From Erythrobacter sp. (GTDB taxonomy: Bacteria; Pseudomonadota; Alphaproteobacteria; Sphingomonadales; Sphingomonadaceae): a DNA stretch of 64,000 nt. The position numbers and the translations under genes are program-made. Of this stretch, positions 6,920 to 23,392 are shown one piece after another. Below the pieces are notes generated by a model. The model made no database searches, had not been told where the DNA came from, and worked only from the letters and a program-made list of their open reading frames with translations. Where the stretch lies: positions 2,016 through 66,015 of the forward strand of contig JBMSNZ010000001.1 in assembly GCA_049421965.1 (NCBI GenBank). Reading direction: 5' to 3'. Every line of letters starts with the position of its first letter. Positions within the stretch are counted from its first letter, which is position 1.

Positions 6920-7866
6920 GCGGATTTGGCGCGCATTCCACCACCGACGAAGTTCTGGCGGGGAAAGACCTCTCCGGCATGACGGTGTTCATTACGGGCG
7001 GGGCTTCGGGTATCGGGCAGGAGACGGCGCGGGCAATGGCCACGCGCAGCGCCCATGTCGTGATCGCAGCGCGCGATCCGGCCAAGCTTGAGGCCGCCGC
7101 CGCCGAAATCCGGCAAGCGAGCGGCAACAGCAAGGTGGAAACGATCCTCCTCGACCTTGCCTCGCTGGCCAGTGTGCGTGCCTGCGCCGCCGAAGCGCGC
7201 GAGCGCTTTCAGAAGATCGACCTCCTGATCAACAATGCCGGGGTCATGGCCTGCCCATTGGGCCGCACAGCCGACGGTTTCGAAATGCAGTTTGGCACCA
7301 ACCATCTCGGGCATTTCGTGCTGACGCTGCACCTGCTGCCGTTGCTGGAACGTGGCAAGGGCAAGCGGATCGTCAACCTCTCCAGCCGCGCGCATCACAT
7401 GGATGAAGTGCATTTCGACGATCCCAACTACGCGAGCCGACCATACGACAAATGGGAAAGCTACGGCCAGTCGAAGACCGCCAATGTCCTGTTCAGCGTA
7501 GCGCTCGACCAGCGTCTCAAAGCAAAGGGGATCGATGTCTTTGCGGTGCACCCAGGCGGTATCATGACCAACCTTGGCCGCCATTTGAGCGAGGCGGATG
7601 TCGCGGCGCTGATGGCCCGCGTCACCGAGGGAGACCGCAGTTTCTCCTGGAAAACCGTCGAGCAGGGGGCGGCGACCAGCTGCTGGGCAGCAACCGCTTC
7701 CGAACTGGCAGGCCATGGCGGTGTCTACTGCGAAGATTGCCACGTCGCCCCAGTCGACGATCTGTCAGCTGATGGCGGTGTGCGCAGCTATGCGATCGAT
7801 CCCGCCAAGGCAGAACGATTGTGGGCACTGAGCGAGGAACTGGTTGGGGAACGTTTCGCGCTCTAG
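6916..7866 (+). CDS. SDR oxidoreductase (retinol dehydrogenase/WWOX-like subfamily)
   Basis: TGGASGIG, LINNAG, FGTNHLGHF and catalytic YGQSK. Confidence 0.92.
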   Translation: MSGFGAHSTTDEVLAGKDLSGMTVFITGGASGIGQETARAMATRSAHVVIAARDPAKLEAAAAEIRQASGNSKVETILLDLASLASVRACAAEARERFQKIDLLINNAGVMACPLGRTADGFEMQFGTNHLGHFVLTLHLLPLLERGKGKRIVNLSSRAHHMDEVHFDDPNYASRPYDKWESYGQSKTANVLFSVALDQRLKAKGIDVFAVHPGGIMTNLGRHLSEADVAALMARVTEGDRSFSWKTVEQGAATSCWAATASELAGHGGVYCEDCHVAPVDDLSADGGVRSYAIDPAKAERLWALSEELVGERFAL

Positions 7867-8663
7867 CGCATCACACCAAGCCCCTCGATCAGACCATCTG
7901 CCAGCCACCGGCCCAGCATCGCGCCGACGCGCAACGCCGCTTCGTCAGCCAGCGCATCGGTCGGGTCGTCACCAGCCAAAATCATACAAAGCTCACCAAA
8001 GCCCATGCCTGACTGCATGGCGAGGAGGGCATGGCACTCCTCCGCTTCACGCAGCGCAAATGTCGCGCGCTCGCCTTCGCGCCAGACCAGCACCGCCTGC
8101 GACGCAGCTAGCCTTGCTTCAGGGTGCTGCAGAGTGTCCTGCCCAAGCGCATGCCAGATCATCGCCAGATCGTGCGCCACTTCGCGCGTTGCGACGCCGG
8201 GGACAAACTCAAGGCGCAGCATGGCCCACTGATCCTCGCTGAAATCGGCCGTCGCTGCGGCAAAGCCGTCTGCGTCAAGCGGCTGCGTATCGGCGGCGGT
8301 AAAGGCATGCAGCATCGCCCATTCGAGCCATGCCAGTTCTGCCACTTCGGGATCATTGGCGAACAGCTCAGCGCAGGTTTCAGAGAAGCCCGCTCCGGCG
8401 GCATCGATCGTCCAGCTATGCGGAGGATGCAGAATCACGTGATGCGCCGCAGCGGCGCGAAATGCTTCCTCGCCCACCCAACGTGCTGTCTTGTCGTAGG
8501 TATCCCGCAGTGCTTCGACCAGCGCCGCGCGAAAGTTCCCACGATAGACAGCCATGCCCGCTGCATGCCGCCTGGACCACCCTGCGGGCATAGGCGCGTC
8601 TTCGTCCAGCACTTGCGCCATGAAGGCCGCTTGCGCCTGGGCAAGGCTGCTTAGCGAGCTCAT
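7863..8663 (-). CDS. DUF2063 (BufC/HvfC-type) RiPP recognition partner of the MNIO
   Basis: AQAQAAF..GMAVYRGN, ELAWLEWA motifs; ATGA overlap with the DUF692 stop. Confidence 0.85.
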   Translation of the reverse strand: MSSLSSLAQAQAAFMAQVLDEDAPMPAGWSRRHAAGMAVYRGNFRAALVEALRDTYDKTARWVGEEAFRAAAAHHVILHPPHSWTIDAAGAGFSETCAELFANDPEVAELAWLEWAMLHAFTAADTQPLDADGFAAATADFSEDQWAMLRLEFVPGVATREVAHDLAMIWHALGQDTLQHPEARLAASQAVLVWREGERATFALREAEECHALLAMQSGMGFGELCMILAGDDPTDALADEAALRVGAMLGRWLADGLIEGLGVMR

Positions 8664-9502
8664 GCCGTTGCGCGGGCCATAGCCCGTAGCCCGATGCTGC
8701 GTGCCAGGTCGAGTTCGGCGAGCAGTTCGGGCAGCCGCGGGATCCGGTCGTCGCGTTCGATCATGGTGGCGACCGGCTGCGCGATCATGCCCATCGCCTG
8801 CGCGTAAAGCGCCCAAACCTCAGCGCACACCTCGCGGTCATGCGTGTCGATTACGATTTCGCCCGGCGTGTGCCCGGCCAGATGGATCTGGCGCACCCGA
8901 TCGAGCGGCAGACCTGCCAGATAGTCCCGATTAGCGAAGCCATGGTTGCACGCACTTACATGTATGTTGTTGACGTCGAGCAGCAGGTAGCAGTCGGTGC
9001 GCCGCACCATTTCGGCCAGGAATTCCCATTCTGTCAGCTCGTCTTCGGGAAAAGTAAGATAGCTCGAGGGGTTCTCGAACAGCATGGCGCGACCGAGATG
9101 ATCTTGAGCCACCGCAATGTTGGCGCAGACCACGCCGAGTGCTTCCTCGGTCAGCGGCAGAGGCAAGAGGTCGTGGCTGTTGTGCGCGCTGGTGCGGGTC
9201 CAGCATAAATGGTCCGACACCCAAAGCGGCTCGACTCGCCGAACAAGCCGTTTGAGCCGGTCGAGATAGGCCCGGTCGAGCCCGCCCACCGATCCGATCG
9301 ACATCGAGACGCCGTGCAGTGCGACGGGATGGCGTTCGCGCACCTCGTCAAGGATGCGCAAGGGCCGCCCGCCGTCGACCATGTAGTTCTCGCTGATCAC
9401 CTCGACGAAATCGACCGGCACGTCGCCTTCAACGAAATCGGCGTAATGTTCACGGCGCAAGCCCAGCCCGAAACCGCCGAACGGCGTGATCGCTTGTGTC
9501 AT
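8660..9502 (-). CDS. DUF692 multinuclear non-heme iron oxidase (MNIO, BufB-type)
   Basis: GLGLRREH, EVISENY, HGVSMSIG, VSDHLCW, ENPSSY, LLDVNN, QIHLAGH, IDTH, MIERD motifs. Confidence 0.95.
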   Translation of the reverse strand: MTQAITPFGGFGLGLRREHYADFVEGDVPVDFVEVISENYMVDGGRPLRILDEVRERHPVALHGVSMSIGSVGGLDRAYLDRLKRLVRRVEPLWVSDHLCWTRTSAHNSHDLLPLPLTEEALGVVCANIAVAQDHLGRAMLFENPSSYLTFPEDELTEWEFLAEMVRRTDCYLLLDVNNIHVSACNHGFANRDYLAGLPLDRVRQIHLAGHTPGEIVIDTHDREVCAEVWALYAQAMGMIAQPVATMIERDDRIPRLPELLAELDLARSIGLRAMARATA

Positions 9503-9524
9503 ACGCTCGCTCCGCAGCGAGTGG

Positions 9525-9584
9525 TGATGGCCCGACCCCTGGCTGAGAGGGGGTGGGGGTCAGTGGCAAGGGGCCGGACCATCA
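9525..9584. other. Strong intergenic stem-loop between precursor and MNIO genes
   Basis: TGATGGCCCGACCCCT pairs with AGGGGCCGGACCATCA (14 of 16 positions pair); inner CTGA/TCAG helix. Confidence 0.6.
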
Positions 9585-9601
9585 TTGCGTGAGGCAGCCG
9601 A

Positions 9602-9889
9602 TCAGCGAAGATCGCCGATTGTGCCGCCCTTGCTGAGGCATTCGCCCGCCTTCATTGCCTTGAAGCCATGGCCCTTACAGGCATTCTGACCCTTGCAGGC
9701 GTTCTCGCTGGTCGCGCAATCCGAATTGCCCTTGCAAGAATGCACGCCGTAGCAATGCACCATATCATCGGCGCCGATTGCCTTGCCACTGCTGCCGGCG
9801 GGTGGCTCGGCACCAAATGCGGCGGCAGACGACAATGCGATGGCACCGGCCAAGGCGGCCAGTGCGGTCTTGCGGGTATCGATTTTCAT
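9602..9889 (-). CDS. BufA2-type bufferin precursor (signal peptide plus 6-Cys core with CKG repeats)
   Basis: 95 aa; signal peptide; CYGVHSCKGNSDCATSENACKGQNACKGHGF..ECL; GGAG RBS; first gene of the DUF692 operon. Confidence 0.85.
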   Translation of the reverse strand: MKIDTRKTALAALAGAIALSSAAAFGAEPPAGSSGKAIGADDMVHCYGVHSCKGNSDCATSENACKGQNACKGHGFKAMKAGECLSKGGTIGDLR

Positions 9890-9937
9890 GAAGCTCTCCA
9901 TCCAAATGCGGCTAGTCCGGGAACGGACAGCAGGTAA

Positions 9938-9963
9938 TTCGGCCAAAGCTGGCAAGCGGTTAC
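9938..9963 (-). promoter_or_regulatory. SigF (ECF16)-type promoter for bufA2-bufB-bufC
   Basis: Minus strand GTAACC (9963-9958), N16, CGAA (9941-9938): exact match to the Caulobacter SigF consensus as I recall it. Confidence 0.85.
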
Positions 9964-9986
9964 CGAATTGCGCGAGAAAGTTTGTT

Positions 9987-10012
9987 GTAACCGGTCGTGG
10001 ACGGGCAGCGAA
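9987..10012 (+). promoter_or_regulatory. SigF (ECF16)-type promoter for bufA1-doxX-sigF-nrsF
   Basis: GTAACC (9987-9992), N16, CGAA (10009-10012): exact match. Confidence 0.85.
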
Positions 10013-10082
10013 CCAGCGGACAGTTCCGGCCCCTCGGCCCGGATCCCGCTGACCCCTACTCTTCAATTTCGGAGACTCCTTC

Positions 10083-10367
10083 ATGACCGAACGACCGATC
10101 GCCCGCATGGCTGGCCTCGCCATTGCCGCCGGTATTGCCGCCAGCTTCGCGACCAGCCCCGCCGCCGCGCAGAAGCAACCGATGGAAAAGTGCTACGGCA
10201 TTTCAAAGGCCGGGCAGAACGACTGCGCCGCCGGGCCGGGCACCAGCTGCGCCGGAACCTCCACCCGCGATTACCAGGGCGATGCCTGGAAGCTTGTTGC
10301 AAAGGGCACATGCGTGAAGACCAATACGCCCAAGGGCAAGGGATCGCTCACGCCGGTCAAGCGCTGA
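10083..10367 (+). CDS. BufA1-type bufferin precursor (DUF2282)
   Basis: Signal peptide; [37 protein letters not shown] with 4 Cys. Confidence 0.9.
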
Positions 10368-10395
10368 ACCGGCCAAAGCGCGGGAAACAGGATCG

Positions 10396-10854
10396 ATGCA
10401 AACGCTCACGTTGATCTATGAACGTCTCGTCGGACTTGCATCGGGCAGGTTCGGTGAAGGGCTCGCTCTGCTTGTAGTTCGCGTCGCCCTCGCAGGTATC
10501 TTCTGGCGATCGGGCCGGACCAAAGTGGTGGAGGGAAGCTGGCTGACGATCAGCGACACGACCCACTTCCTGTTCGAAACCGATTACTCGGCAGTGCCAC
10601 TTCCGCCTGCGCTTGCGGCGCCTATGGCAACCTATGCCGAGCATCTGTTTCCGCTCCTGTTGGTGCTCGGCCTCGCCACTCGCTTTTCCGCACTGGCGCT
10701 GATCGGGATGACATTGATGATCCAGTTCTTCGTCTATCCCGAGGCGTGGTGGAGCGTACACATGTTGTGGGTGGCGCTCGCGGGCACGCTGGTGTGCCGC
10801 GGCGCGGGGGTGTTCTCACTCGATGAAGGCCTTGCTAGTCTACGCAAGCCATGA
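10396..10854 (+). CDS. DoxX family membrane protein (BufD-type)
   Basis: LVVRVALAGIFWRSG, EHLFPLLLVLGLATRFSA, QFFVYP..H, GAGVFSLD. Confidence 0.88.
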   Translation: MQTLTLIYERLVGLASGRFGEGLALLVVRVALAGIFWRSGRTKVVEGSWLTISDTTHFLFETDYSAVPLPPALAAPMATYAEHLFPLLLVLGLATRFSALALIGMTLMIQFFVYPEAWWSVHMLWVALAGTLVCRGAGVFSLDEGLASLRKP

Positions 10855-11381
10855 TCGCTGATGAGGCTACGCTTGCCCGCCTGATGGCGCTGGCACAGAT
10901 AGGTGACCGATCCGCCTATCGCGTACTGCTGGCAGAAACCGGCATGTGGCTGGAGCGCTATTTCCGTCGGCGCGTCCCGCCGCATGAGTTGGACGATCTG
11001 GTTCAGGATGTCCTGATGGCGCTGCACGCAAAACGCGCCAGTTATGATCCGGCCCGTCCGTTCCTGCCGTGGCTGGCGGCGATTGCCCGCTACCGCTGGG
11101 TCGATCATTTGCGCAAGGTCTATCGGCATGAGGCAGAACTGCTCGAAGATGGCGACGCATCGGTTGAGAGCGAAGAGGAAGTGGTCGAGGCGCGTGTGAG
11201 CCTCGAACGCCTGTTCGTGCATTTGCCGGAGCGCCAGACCAAGGTGATCGAGCTGGTCAAGATCGAGGGCCGATCAATCGAAGAAGCGGCGGCGATTACC
11301 GGCCAGAGCGAGAGCCTGGTGAAAGTGAATATCCATCGCGGACTCAAGCGATTGTCCGCGCTAATTGAGAAGGCTGATTAG
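10851..11381 (+). CDS. sigF: ECF sigma-70 factor, SigF/ECF16-like
   Basis: DDLVQDVLMALH, FLPWLAAIARYRWVD, VKVNIHRG; followed by nrsF; cognate promoters upstream. Confidence 0.82.
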   Translation: MIADEATLARLMALAQIGDRSAYRVLLAETGMWLERYFRRRVPPHELDDLVQDVLMALHAKRASYDPARPFLPWLAAIARYRWVDHLRKVYRHEAELLEDGDASVESEEEVVEARVSLERLFVHLPERQTKVIELVKIEGRSIEEAAAITGQSESLVKVNIHRGLKRLSALIEKAD

Positions 11382-11383
11382 AA

Positions 11384-12028
11384 ATGAACCAGAACCGCGA
11401 CAATCTGATCGCCGGTCTGACCGAGGAACTTTCCGCCGTGCGTGTGTTCCGCAAACGCGACGGGATTGCGCTGCTCGCAGTTTCCGCTTTGGCAACGCTG
11501 GTGGGCGTCGAGCTGTCCGAAGGTCTGTGGCGCGGAATTCTCACCGGCGAGCCAGCGCCGTTTTTCTGGGTTACAAGCGGCCTGTTGCTAGGCCTTGGGC
11601 TTGCCGCCAGCGGCGTGGTGATCGCCATGGCTTCGCCAAGCGTCGGACAACGTCACGATGCACCTCGATGGGCCAGCGCGATGCTGGGCGTGCTGCCGTT
11701 GGCAGCGCTGGTCAGCGCCTTGTCCGGCCCCGAGGGAGTCACTGCATTGACCCTTGATGACCATGCCAGCCACTGCCTGCAGGCCTCGCTGGTTGCGTCC
11801 TTGGCCAGCGGTGCAGCCCTGGTGCTGTGGCTAAGGCGCGGCGCGCCGGTTTCACTCGAAAAGGCAGGCTGGCTTGCCGGGATTGCTGCCGGATCGCTGG
11901 GGACTCTCGCTTATGGCATATCCTGCACGGTGGATTCGGTCACGCATCTGGGCATCTGGCACGTTGCTCCGGTAGCGCTCACGGCATTCGTCGGCCGGTT
12001 GGTGGTTCCTCCACTCGTGCGCTGGTGA
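11384..12028 (+). CDS. nrsF: NrsF (DUF1109) membrane anti-sigma factor
   Basis: About six TM helices; LRRGAP motif; two Cys (SHCL, ISCT..HLGIWH). Confidence 0.85.
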   Translation: MNQNRDNLIAGLTEELSAVRVFRKRDGIALLAVSALATLVGVELSEGLWRGILTGEPAPFFWVTSGLLLGLGLAASGVVIAMASPSVGQRHDAPRWASAMLGVLPLAALVSALSGPEGVTALTLDDHASHCLQASLVASLASGAALVLWLRRGAPVSLEKAGWLAGIAAGSLGTLAYGISCTVDSVTHLGIWHVAPVALTAFVGRLVVPPLVRW

Positions 12029-12035
12029 CCAGGCT

Positions 12036-13034
12036 CTAAAGCCAACGTAGCCGCCAGAAGATCCCGAGGATCATCGCGGTAGCCAGTCCGCAGACTCCGA
12101 CCACGCCCCAGAACGCCCACGGCTCCTCGGCGAAGGGAATGCCAACCACATTGCTGCCGAGCAGGCCGGTAAGGAAAGTCAGCGGCAGGAACACGCCCGC
12201 CATCACTCCCAGCTTGTAGGTTGCCTCCTGCGAGATCGCCTGTGCCCGGGCGCGCAACTCGTCTTGCAGCACCACCGCGCTTTCCTTGCTGATATTGATA
12301 TCGTCGAGATGCCGGCGCAGCCGCGCGATCGCTTCCACCATTTCGCGCCGGTCATGCGCTTCGAACCATTCGGGCGCTTCAAGCCCGATATGCTCGAGTG
12401 CCTCGTGCTGCGGCGAAAGGTGGCGCTGCAGTGCCAGGCAATCACGCCGGATGCGCGAGATCTCGCCCGCGGTTTCCTGCACACTCTGCATGCCGTCATC
12501 GGCGTCGATCCGGTCGATGGTCTGGTTTATTTCGACCACCGCAGCGCTCAAGTGATCGATCATCAGTTTCACGATCTGTGTCACCATCGCCCCCGCGTCG
12601 CGCGGGCCAGTGCCCTGGTCGATCTGGTCGCGCACTTCGTTTGGGCTTTGCTGCGGCACCCGGCGCAGCGTCAGGATGCGCTGGCCATCGCTCCACAGCT
12701 GCATCGAGATCATGTCCTCAGGCTCTGATCCTGGATTGAAATTGAGATCGCGCAACGTCGCTACAAGCGTATTGCCTTCGCGGAATGCGCGCGGCCTGGT
12801 CTGGTCCGAAGTCAGCAGTTCGGCGGTAGGTTCCGGGATCGGGAAGGTCTGCTGCAGCCAGTCGCGCACGCCTGGCACCGTTCGGCTGAGATGCAGCCAC
12901 AGCACTTCATTATCGTTGCCGGGATGCCATTGGCAGGCCTCGTCCCACGTCACATCGCGCCCGCCACCCGTGCCATCAAGCACGCGCCCGATCAGCAATG
13001 CCCCCGCCAATTCGCCGTCCGCCGTTCCATCCAT
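12036..13034 (-). CDS. CorA/ZntB family divalent cation transporter
   Basis: [37 protein letters not shown] (GxN signature with Ser); alternative start 13052. Confidence 0.85.
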
Positions 13035-13108
13035 GGCCGTTTCATGCCGCATTTTCCTGGCGCTGTCATGTCATTGCCCCGTCACGCGCACCGCCCTATA
13101 TGCGAGAC

Positions 13109-14260: not shown

Positions 14261-14806
14261 ATGTTCGCTGCACTGGCCCTGGCCCTCGCACTGGCGATGG
14301 ATGCCTTCGCGGTCGCGCTGACACAGGGAGCGCGGTTCCGCCATGATTGGCGCAGTATCGCTGCCATATCGCTCGCCTTTGGGCTGTTCCAAGGCGGAAT
14401 GCCGCTCGCCGGATGGCAGCTCGGCAACTTGGCACTGCCCCTGGTTGCAGCCTGGGATCACTGGATCGCCGGCGGACTGCTGGCCTTTCTCGGCACGCAG
14501 ATGATCTGGATTGGTGAAGCCGAAGATGAAGGTCCGCCCAGGCTGTCGGGCCTTGCGCTTGGCGCAGCGGCGCTGGCGACCAGCATCGACGCTTTTGCGG
14601 CGGGCATTACCTTGCCCACGCTCGGCATTGCGCCACTGGTATCGTGCACACTGATCGCTGTGGTGACCGCTGCCCTCTCAGCCCTCGCTATCCTGCTCGG
14701 CCAGCGCGCAGGTGATCGCTTTGGCCGCCACGCAGAGGTGGCCGGCGGCGTGGTGCTGATCGCACTGGGTGTCAAAATCGCGTTCGAGCACGTTTTCGCG
14801 TTCTGA
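14261..14806 (+). CDS. mntP: Manganese efflux pump MntP family
   Basis: Duplicated LAMDAFAV / [10 protein letters not shown] motifs; six TM helices. Confidence 0.85.
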
Positions 14807-19710: not shown

Positions 19711-20595
19711 ATGTCCCGCCAGCATCCGATCCTGTTGCCGATGGCAGCGGCCTTGCTTGGCGTCGGTTTCCTGTCGCTGATGGATGCCTTCATGAAAGGC
19801 GCTGCGCTCGCGGCTGGGGCCTATAGCGCATCGGTGCTACGTTCGGCCTTCGGCACCGCGCTTATAGCTCCGGTCTGGCTCGCCACAGGTGGTCGCTGGC
19901 CGCAGCGCCATGTGCTGCGGATCCACTTGCTGCGCGGCACGGTGTCGGGCTTCATGGCGCTGAGCTTCTTCTACTCGCTCACCAAGCTGCCCATCGCCGA
20001 AGCGATCGCAATTTCGTTCATAGCCCCCCTGATCGCTCTCTATCTTGCTGCGATCTTGCTGGGGGAGACGATCCGGCGCGAGGCAGTGGCCGCCTCGATT
20101 ATGGGGCTGATCGGCACGCTGGTGATCGTCGGCGGGCGGCTCGGCGAGGCGGAGTATGACGGCGATACCCTGAAAGGGCTGGCAGCTGTCCTATTCTCCG
20201 CCGCTCTCTATGCCTGGAACTTCATCATCATCCGCAAGCAGGCTCTGGTCTCGAGCCCCGCCGAAGCGACAACCTTCCACAGCGCGGTGGCCGGCCTGGT
20301 GCTGCTGTTGTTCGCGCCATGGTTCTTCATCTTCCCCGAGGCCGGTGCCCTTGTCGACATCGCGATCTCGGCCGTGCTGACTGTGGCTGGCGCTTTCGCG
20401 CTGACGTGGGCCTATGCCCGAGCCGAGGCACAGGTGCTGGTGCCGATGGAATATTCAGGCTTCTTGTGGGCGGCGTTGTTCGGCTGGGTGTTCTTCCGCG
20501 AGGAGCTAACCGCCAGCACGCTGGCAGGCGCGGCGTTGATCGTGATCGGCTGCTGGATTGCCGCCCGCGCACGGCCCGAACAAAGCGCAATTTAG
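19711..20595 (+). CDS. DMT/EamA family transporter
   Basis: Ten hydrophobic segments in two EamA repeats; alternative start 19675. Confidence 0.85.
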
Positions 20596-20714
20596 GCCAG
20601 AGACCGCCGCCCAGCCCCTTGACCTCGCGCCTGCGAAAGAGCAGTGCCGCGGCAGATTTTCGGCCCGCCCGTTTCCGGCGCGGGCGATCCATTAGCGCGA
20701 TGAAAGGACCCCTG

Positions 20715-23392
<2,678 letters not shown>

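Follow-up and report, generated by a model that had tools for sequence, protein, structure and literature searches.

Can a single pair of maturation enzymes serve two classes of bufferin precursor? Bufferins and related thiooxazole peptides make up the largest group of RiPPs (peptides made by ribosomes and modified after translation) that are modified by MNIO enzymes. The question is raised by a locus in a 64,000-nucleotide stretch of a metagenome contig from Erythrobacter sp. (assembly GCA_049421965.1, contig JBMSNZ010000001.1, positions 2,016 to 66,015 of the forward strand; this whole stretch is called the window below). Two divergent operons encode here a precursor of the Buf1 class (BufA1) and one of the Buf2 class (BufA2), together with a single MNIO (BufB) and a single DUF2063 partner protein (BufC). 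On balance, and with moderate confidence, we favour the answer that this is a streamlined bufferin locus under sigma-F control, in which one Buf2-type BufB-BufC pair (BufBC) matures both BufA1 and BufA2. Comparative genomics suggests such a shared enzyme, above all through lineages that lost bufA2 and yet kept BufBC beside bufA1.

Layout and control of the locus

The genes and putative promoters of the locus are, in order of position in the window:

7863-8663, minus strand: bufC, DUF2063 partner protein of the MNIO (RRE-type, PME-type 1); PF09836, 66 bits; weak match to the HvfC model of NCBIfam
8660-9502, minus strand: bufB, MNIO (DUF692) bufferin maturase; PF05114, 351 bits; NCBIfam MNIO_BufB NF050167, 367 bits (cut-off 310)
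9602-9889, minus strand: bufA2, Buf2-class precursor; NF050166, 99 bits (cut-off 60); Sec-type signal peptide (judged by eye), six Cys
9938-9963, minus strand: sigma-F-type promoter facing bufA2-bufB-bufC; exact GTAACC-N16-CGAA, about 45 nt upstream of the bufA2 ATG
9987-10012, plus strand: sigma-F-type promoter facing bufA1-doxX-sigF-nrsF; exact GTAACC-N16-CGAA, 70 nt upstream of the bufA1 ATG
10083-10367, plus strand: bufA1, Buf1-class precursor; DUF2282, PF10048, 87 bits; Sec-type signal peptide, four Cys
10396-10854, plus strand: doxX, bufD-like membrane protein; PF07681, 66 bits
10851-11381, plus strand: sigF, extracytoplasmic function (ECF) sigma factor; Sigma70_r2/r4_2
11384-12028, plus strand: nrsF, membrane anti-sigma-F factor, 214 aa; PF06532, 133 bits

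The first-pass annotation of this DNA, made from the letters without database searches, had proposed a locus of the bufferin type in which a single local MNIO/DUF2063 pair is accompanied by precursors of two classes, with DoxX, SigF and NrsF on the BufA1 side. This picture stands, as all seven genes are present and their families match. The same annotation had noted that the DUF2282 precursor has no adjacent MNIO, which is borne out by doxX starting 28 nt after bufA1 and by a phmmer search of every six-frame open reading frame (ORF), which found no second MNIO, DUF2063, BufA1, BufA2 or DoxX in the 64-kb window. The bufC ATG overlaps the stop codon of bufB and the sigF start overlaps that of doxX (ATGA in both cases), and the gene junctions indicate two compact operons; since the gap between bufA1 and doxX is so short, there is no decayed remnant of an enzyme gene between them. 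The mechanically called bufA2 ORF (9602-10123, minus strand, 173 aa) is too long: the true start is the ATG at 9889 (MKIDTRK...), with GGAGAG just 5' of it and in agreement with the N-termini of orthologues.

In terms of cluster types, the leftward operon has the DUF2063 gene directly 3' of the MNIO gene and the gene order bufABC, as is characteristic of Buf2-type clusters. The rightward operon has the Buf1-type attributes of a doxX gene cotranscribed with bufA1 and of sigma factor and NrsF genes nearby, which occur in Buf1 and not in Buf2 clusters (PMC12452194), but it departs from the strict Buf1-type bufABC order, with no MNIO and DUF2063 genes of its own directly 3' of bufA1.

GTAACC-N16-CGAA is the sigma-F binding motif of Caulobacter (PMC3511200). 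Exact copies occur only twice in the 64 kb (0.03 expected in shuffled sequence), both of them in the spacer of 193 bp that separates bufA2 from bufA1, where they are arranged back to back; if one mismatch is allowed, the window yields two further sites, both unrelated. The motif is kept at the same positions before bufA2 and before bufA1 in most related loci. As the two motifs are confined to the spacer and the layout recurs in dozens of genomes, the arrangement is no chance juxtaposition. The spacing of the bufA1 promoter resembles that of Caulobacter CC3254, whose transcription starts at -61 (PMC3511200), and NrsF has exactly two Cys residues (131 and 181), which coincide with C131 and C181 of Caulobacter NrsF, positions shown to matter (PMC3511200). 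Judging from these motifs, whose promoter activity is predicted, both operons are very likely co-induced by sigma-F, and with sigF-nrsF inside the bufA1 operon induction would give positive feedback. No sigma-70-type promoters and no convincing terminators were found in the locus.

The maturase and the two precursors

To place the enzyme, we annotated 80 species-level (GTDB) loci for comparison. Six of them have a second BufB encoded directly downstream of its own bufA1, and these six Buf1-type enzymes form a clade with 100% bootstrap that does not include BufB of the window. The latter scores about 180-215 bits against Buf1-type enzymes and 330-500 bits against bufA2-linked ones; it is 38-48% identical to the best 120 Buf1-type enzymes of a profile search and at least 54% identical to every sampled bufA2-linked enzyme. 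The separate clade, the scores and the identities together place this BufB, by its sequence, in the Buf2-type clade, which supplies the phylogenetic placement that the first-pass annotation had suggested as a check. All the conserved metal-ligand motifs (HGVS, SDHL, ENPS, DVNN, HLAGH, DTHD and ERDD) are found. In the related maturase FonB, the substrate is contacted by Arg15/Arg16 and by the residue after the catalytic Asp; at this last site Lys-Cys enzymes have Phe and Cys-Lys (Buf2) enzymes have Asp, and DUF2282 enzymes vary (PMC13097082). At these sites BufB of the window has R16-R17 and D250-D251, the last pair being the Buf2 state.

The first-pass annotation had asked whether one BufBC could modify two "unrelated cores", and here it has to be corrected, for the two precursors are, on sequence evidence, remote homologues. 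A profile-profile comparison of BufA1 and BufA2 gave 95.8% probability and an E-value of 7e-9 over 90 columns, many BufA2-type proteins have a precomputed PF10048 match, and the predicted structures of BufA1 and BufA2 are very similar (PMC11626156). BufA2 has Cys residues at positions 46, 52, 58, 65, 71 and 84, three of them in CKG motifs, in an alignment with about 60 orthologues; BufA1 has them at positions 37, 48, 56 and 77, all four invariant across 60 aligned loci. In the profile alignment the first Cys pairs with the first and the last with the last, so that the disulphide Cys residues are in register, and CysII and CysIII of BufA1 align with CysIII and CysIV of BufA2, bringing the modified Cys residues into register as well; BufA1 has no equivalents of CysII and CysV of BufA2. 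The chemistry is common to Caulobacter Buf1 and Buf2, for which an outer disulphide and central thiooxazoles have been established, and precursor recognition in Caulobacter is by the core and not by the signal peptide (PMC11626156). The BufA1 core is near-invariant across the 60 loci, with or without a Buf1-type enzyme at the locus.

Precursor genes are also multiplied in some of the compared loci. One (L075, 9035-9846) has two tandem bufA2 genes ahead of a single bufBC pair, and two Lysobacter-type loci (L077 and L078) encode 12-Cys BufA2 proteins built of two 6-Cys domains.

Shared, separate or no maturation of BufA1

The layout of the window, with nrsF, sigF, doxX and bufA1 read in one direction and bufA2, bufB and bufC in the other, is found in about 35 of the 80 species-level loci, mostly from Sphingomonadales. 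These include Altererythrobacter ishigakiensis, the complete chromosome of A. arenosus, members of Qipengyuania, Pontixanthobacter, Croceicoccus, Novosphingobium, Sphingomonas and Sphingosinicella, and a few contigs labelled gammaproteobacteria. In six other loci (L047, L050, L053, L056, L065 and L080) both classes are present, each with its own enzyme pair, and published per-genome identifiers reveal a divergent pair of complete buf1 and buf2 operons in Asticcacaulis (GCF_000175215.2); such double operons are extant in Asticcacaulis, some Sphingomonas and some Luteibacter. As the layout of the window equals a double locus minus bufB1-bufC1, and departures from the canonical bufABC order are otherwise very rare, loss of bufB1-bufC1 from a divergent double operon is the parsimonious history. 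By the same reasoning we infer that bufA2 was later lost too in an Erythrobacter sub-lineage, so that the Buf2-type enzyme there has no neighbouring substrate but BufA1.

It is this last group that bears most directly on the question. In eighteen loci of Erythrobacter type, bufB-bufC is divergent from bufA1-doxX-sigF-nrsF and bufA2 is absent; one of these loci is that of Erythrobacter sp. GH1-10, which lies on a 2.86-Mb contig. A tblastn search found neither bufA2 nor a remnant of it in the 18 loci of 20 kb each. The possibility of a hidden Cys-rich ORF between the promoter and bufB was considered and rejected, as the leader holds none. Both enzyme genes are intact, with ratios of nonsynonymous to synonymous substitution rates (dN/dS) of about 0.10 for bufB and 0.22 for bufC, no higher than in two-precursor loci (dS is saturated), and bufB is still preceded by a sigma-F-like promoter facing it, in most cases one mismatch away from the motif. 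In the tree the enzymes of these loci are interleaved with those of two-precursor loci (L002 and L003, for example, form a group with A. ishigakiensis at 82%). It is difficult to see why a Buf2-type pair would be kept and co-regulated beside a Buf1-class precursor alone if BufA1 were not its substrate. Otherwise, bufA2 would have to lie unseen in another part of these genomes; in our BufA2 search for relocated copies the best 120 matches were listed, and genomes known to have bufA2 also fall outside that list. A comparison of the contigs of one bufA1-only isolate (X22) with a dual locus at 80% likeness proved too insensitive to detect the loss of a Buf1-type gene, as the control, bufB2, matched over 139 bp only. 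An 18.7-kb contig of this isolate also has two matches of 22-24 nt to L050 (7316-7337 and 10640-10663); they lie 7 kb apart on the contig, fall on codons of the conserved MNIO motifs GCELLLD and GKTLLIDT and are probably due to chance in GC-rich Leu codons.

The shared-pair reading would work as follows. By analogy with the sigma-F regulon of the Caulobacter type, which is characterized by induction with copper, chromate or cadmium through sigma-F release, metal or oxidative stress would inactivate the membrane protein NrsF via its two periplasmic Cys residues, and the freed sigma-F would fire the two back-to-back promoters, one driving bufA2-bufB-bufC and the other bufA1-doxX-sigF-nrsF, the latter with positive feedback. 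A cytoplasmic BufBC heterodimer would then turn central Cys residues (four of BufA2, two of BufA1) into 5-thiooxazoles, as expected from the chemistry of Caulobacter Buf1 and Buf2. Both peptides would exit via Sec, shed their signal peptides, form a disulphide between the first and the last Cys and buffer periplasmic copper. That BufA1 requires modification is also argued by a survey in which DUF2282 genes were found in 4072 complete genomes, only 21 of them without any MNIO (PMC12452194).

The first-pass annotation had listed a shared enzyme, maturation in trans and an unmodified BufA1 as the options, and these three remain the right set. In the second of them, a dedicated Buf1-type BufB1-BufC1 pair encoded elsewhere in the genome would mature BufA1, and the local BufBC would serve BufA2 only. 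We regard this as rather unlikely. Such an arrangement has been proposed for orphan precursor genes (PMC12452194), and it would suit both the incomplete gene content of a metagenome contig and the selectivity of enzymes of this family around the target Cys. It also has a precedent of sorts in Novosphingobium aquiterrae (L033), where the shared layout is accompanied about 9 kb downstream by another bufA1 with an MNIO gene behind it (19846-20808), truncated by the end of the locus; an orphan bufA1 thus does not preclude a complete buf1 operon. This locus is, however, the odd one out: a second MNIO within 10 kb on either side is absent in 53 of the 54 shared or bufA1-only loci, just as it is from the window. 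The named sources among the best 120 Buf1-type enzymes are Sphingomonas, Caulobacter, Brevundimonas and Phenylobacterium, with no Erythrobacteraceae, which is weak evidence as few are named. A separate enzyme also leaves unexplained why the bufA1-only loci keep a Buf2-type bufBC under purifying selection and behind a sigma-F-like promoter, with no local bufA2.

The third option, that BufA1 works unmodified, as a small Cys-containing protein of the periplasm whose thiols bind metal or which partners DoxX, with BufBC acting on BufA2 only, appears to us improbable. It would fit the fact that bufA1 shares its operon with doxX rather than with the genes of the enzymes, and "not modified" is among the options named for orphan precursors (PMC12452194). 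In Caulobacter, however, protection is lost when CysII or CysIII is substituted, and the heterocycles are needed for copper to be bound; the surroundings of these two residues are conserved to the same degree in shared and bufA1-only loci and in those that have a BufB1-BufC1 of their own. The rarity of DUF2282 genomes without an MNIO and the retention of bufBC in the bufA1-only loci speak against it as well. That bufA1-doxX is merely a decaying, functionless remnant of a former buf1 operon, as the disappearance of the buf1 enzyme genes might suggest, is scarcely credible, given that bufA1 is intact with all four Cys in about 60 loci, that dN/dS is 0.11-0.21 for bufA1 and 0.16-0.26 for doxX (rough figures, with dS saturated), that the exact sigma-F promoter is kept and that sigF and nrsF are translationally coupled downstream.

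Several points nevertheless weigh against a pair shared by both precursors. For this organism the reading derives from sequence comparison, and a Buf1-type pair elsewhere in the genome is possible with a metagenome contig as the source, as Novosphingobium aquiterrae illustrates. The six dual loci listed above keep both pairs, which suggests that cross-processing is not general, and the selectivity of FonBC around the Cys is family-specific. The dN/dS ratios are rough, as dS is saturated. BufB of the window retains Asp251, the "Cys-Lys" determinant typical of Buf2 enzymes. Finally, the residue signature of the shared enzymes described next can be taken as a lead only: shared ancestry confounds it, and the native enzymes of the Buf1 type have no basic residue at the position in question.

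A lineage of Buf2-type BufBC in Sphingomonadales may have widened its specificity to the Buf1 (DUF2282) precursor after the loss of BufB1-BufC1, with a full switch in some Erythrobacter; we put this forward tentatively, as somewhat less probable than not. The most class-discriminating column of the BufB alignment is position 17, equivalent to the substrate-contacting Arg16 of FonB, where 91% of the enzymes of shared or bufA1-only loci have a basic residue, as against 0 of the 23 of bufA2-only or dual loci; the next columns are 142, 103 and 105-107. Buf1-type enzymes have at positions 16-17 Lys followed by Pro, Ala, Leu, Ser or Thr. The gained basic residue at position 17 and the changes at 103-107 and 142 would be candidate determinants of the class switch. 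We also considered a change of Asp251 as a clean marker of the switch and rejected it: Glu replaces Asp in only six of 17 enzymes from bufA2-less loci (L008, L012, L007, L024, L017 and L026) and in none of the 69 others in the alignment.

Three natural states can thus be compared, namely two classes with two pairs, two classes with one pair, and a Buf1 precursor with a Buf2-type pair alone, which offers a ready comparison for mapping the residues that set precursor-class specificity and provides specific sites to mutate. If true, the class switch would provide a natural example, open to dating, of a RiPP maturase that has changed its precursor class. The locus also indicates that classification of clusters by the nearest precursor gene can mislabel the substrates of the enzymes.

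Some further observations concern the neighbourhood of the locus and its relatives. Convergent to nrsF is a gene for a CorA-family transporter (12036-13052, minus strand), and two genes beyond it lies one for MntP-type manganese efflux (14261-14806, plus strand). CorA is encoded in the same place in Erythrobacter sp. GH1-10, a peptidase S41 gene is found there in A. arenosus, and in A. ishigakiensis CorA is missing from this place. Copies of the Sphingomonadales-type locus (BufB 68-74% identical) occur on contigs labelled Prosthecochloris (L021) and Congregibacter (L031), both from metagenome-assembled genomes, and on contigs labelled as the isolates Halopseudomonas salina (L037) and Luteimonas kalidii (L039); the off-lineage labels could reflect mis-binning, contamination or horizontal transfer. 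In Massilia polaris (L042, 8301-13781) one strand carries bufA1, an alpha/beta hydrolase gene, bufA2, bufB, bufC, a second hydrolase gene, an unknown ORF and doxX; this 20.8-kb locus has no sigF or nrsF gene, and no loose match to the sigma-F motif was found just upstream of its buf genes.

Comparison with known systems

A conserved mixed-class locus with a single Buf2-type pair, and likewise a Buf2-type pair left with a Buf1 precursor alone, are not described in the wider literature we searched or in the bufferin papers as far as their text, as distinct from their figures, is concerned. The novelty is lowered by general proposals already made on MNIOs with several substrates and on orphan precursors: for many precursor genes an adjacent MNIO gene is lacking, and tandem precursor genes suggest "more than one substrate" for an MNIO (PMC12452194). 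The locus resembles these tandem and orphan clusters in having one MNIO with possibly several substrates and a precursor without an adjacent MNIO.

With the FonABC and HvfABC systems (fontiphorin and oxazolin, "captophorins"), which install 5-thiooxazoles on Cys residues of precursors with a Sec signal, the locus shares the combination of an MNIO and a DUF2063 partner, and the FonB specificity sites R15/R16 and D249/F250 map onto BufB of the window. It differs from them in the class of the precursor (theirs have EGKCG repeats) and in the MNIO subgroup, as BufB of the window scores 241 bits on the HvfB model, whose cut-off is 360.

As the first-pass annotation stated, Caulobacter has a separate BufB/BufC for each precursor class (PMC11626156). 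The leftward operon of the window is much like buf2 of Caulobacter vibrioides (bufA2B2C2, CCNA_03001-02999), with its 6-Cys precursor bearing a Sec signal, MNIO, DUF2063 partner and gene order bufABC; it also has the same sigma-F promoter motif, lacks doxX, and encodes a BufB that groups with bufA2-linked enzymes. Unlike Caulobacter buf2, which is a separate locus, it stands back to back with the operon of a Buf1-class precursor that has no enzymes of its own. That second operon is like buf1 of C. vibrioides (bufA1B1C1D1, CCNA_03363-03366, with sigF-nrsF adjacent) in its 4-Cys DUF2282 precursor, DoxX, SigF and NrsF (C131/C181), as well as in the GTAACC-N16-CGAA promoter and a 5' leader of about 60 nt. 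Unlike in Caulobacter, bufB1 and bufC1 are absent, doxX follows directly after bufA1, and sigF-nrsF is fused into the same operon, with an ATGA overlap. Similar in overall plan are the double buf1-buf2 loci of Asticcacaulis (GCF_000175215.2) and of the six dual cases, which likewise hold both classes at one locus, some of them divergent and with sigF-nrsF. In these each precursor keeps its own BufBC, whereas the locus of the window resembles the product of a clean loss of bufB1-bufC1.

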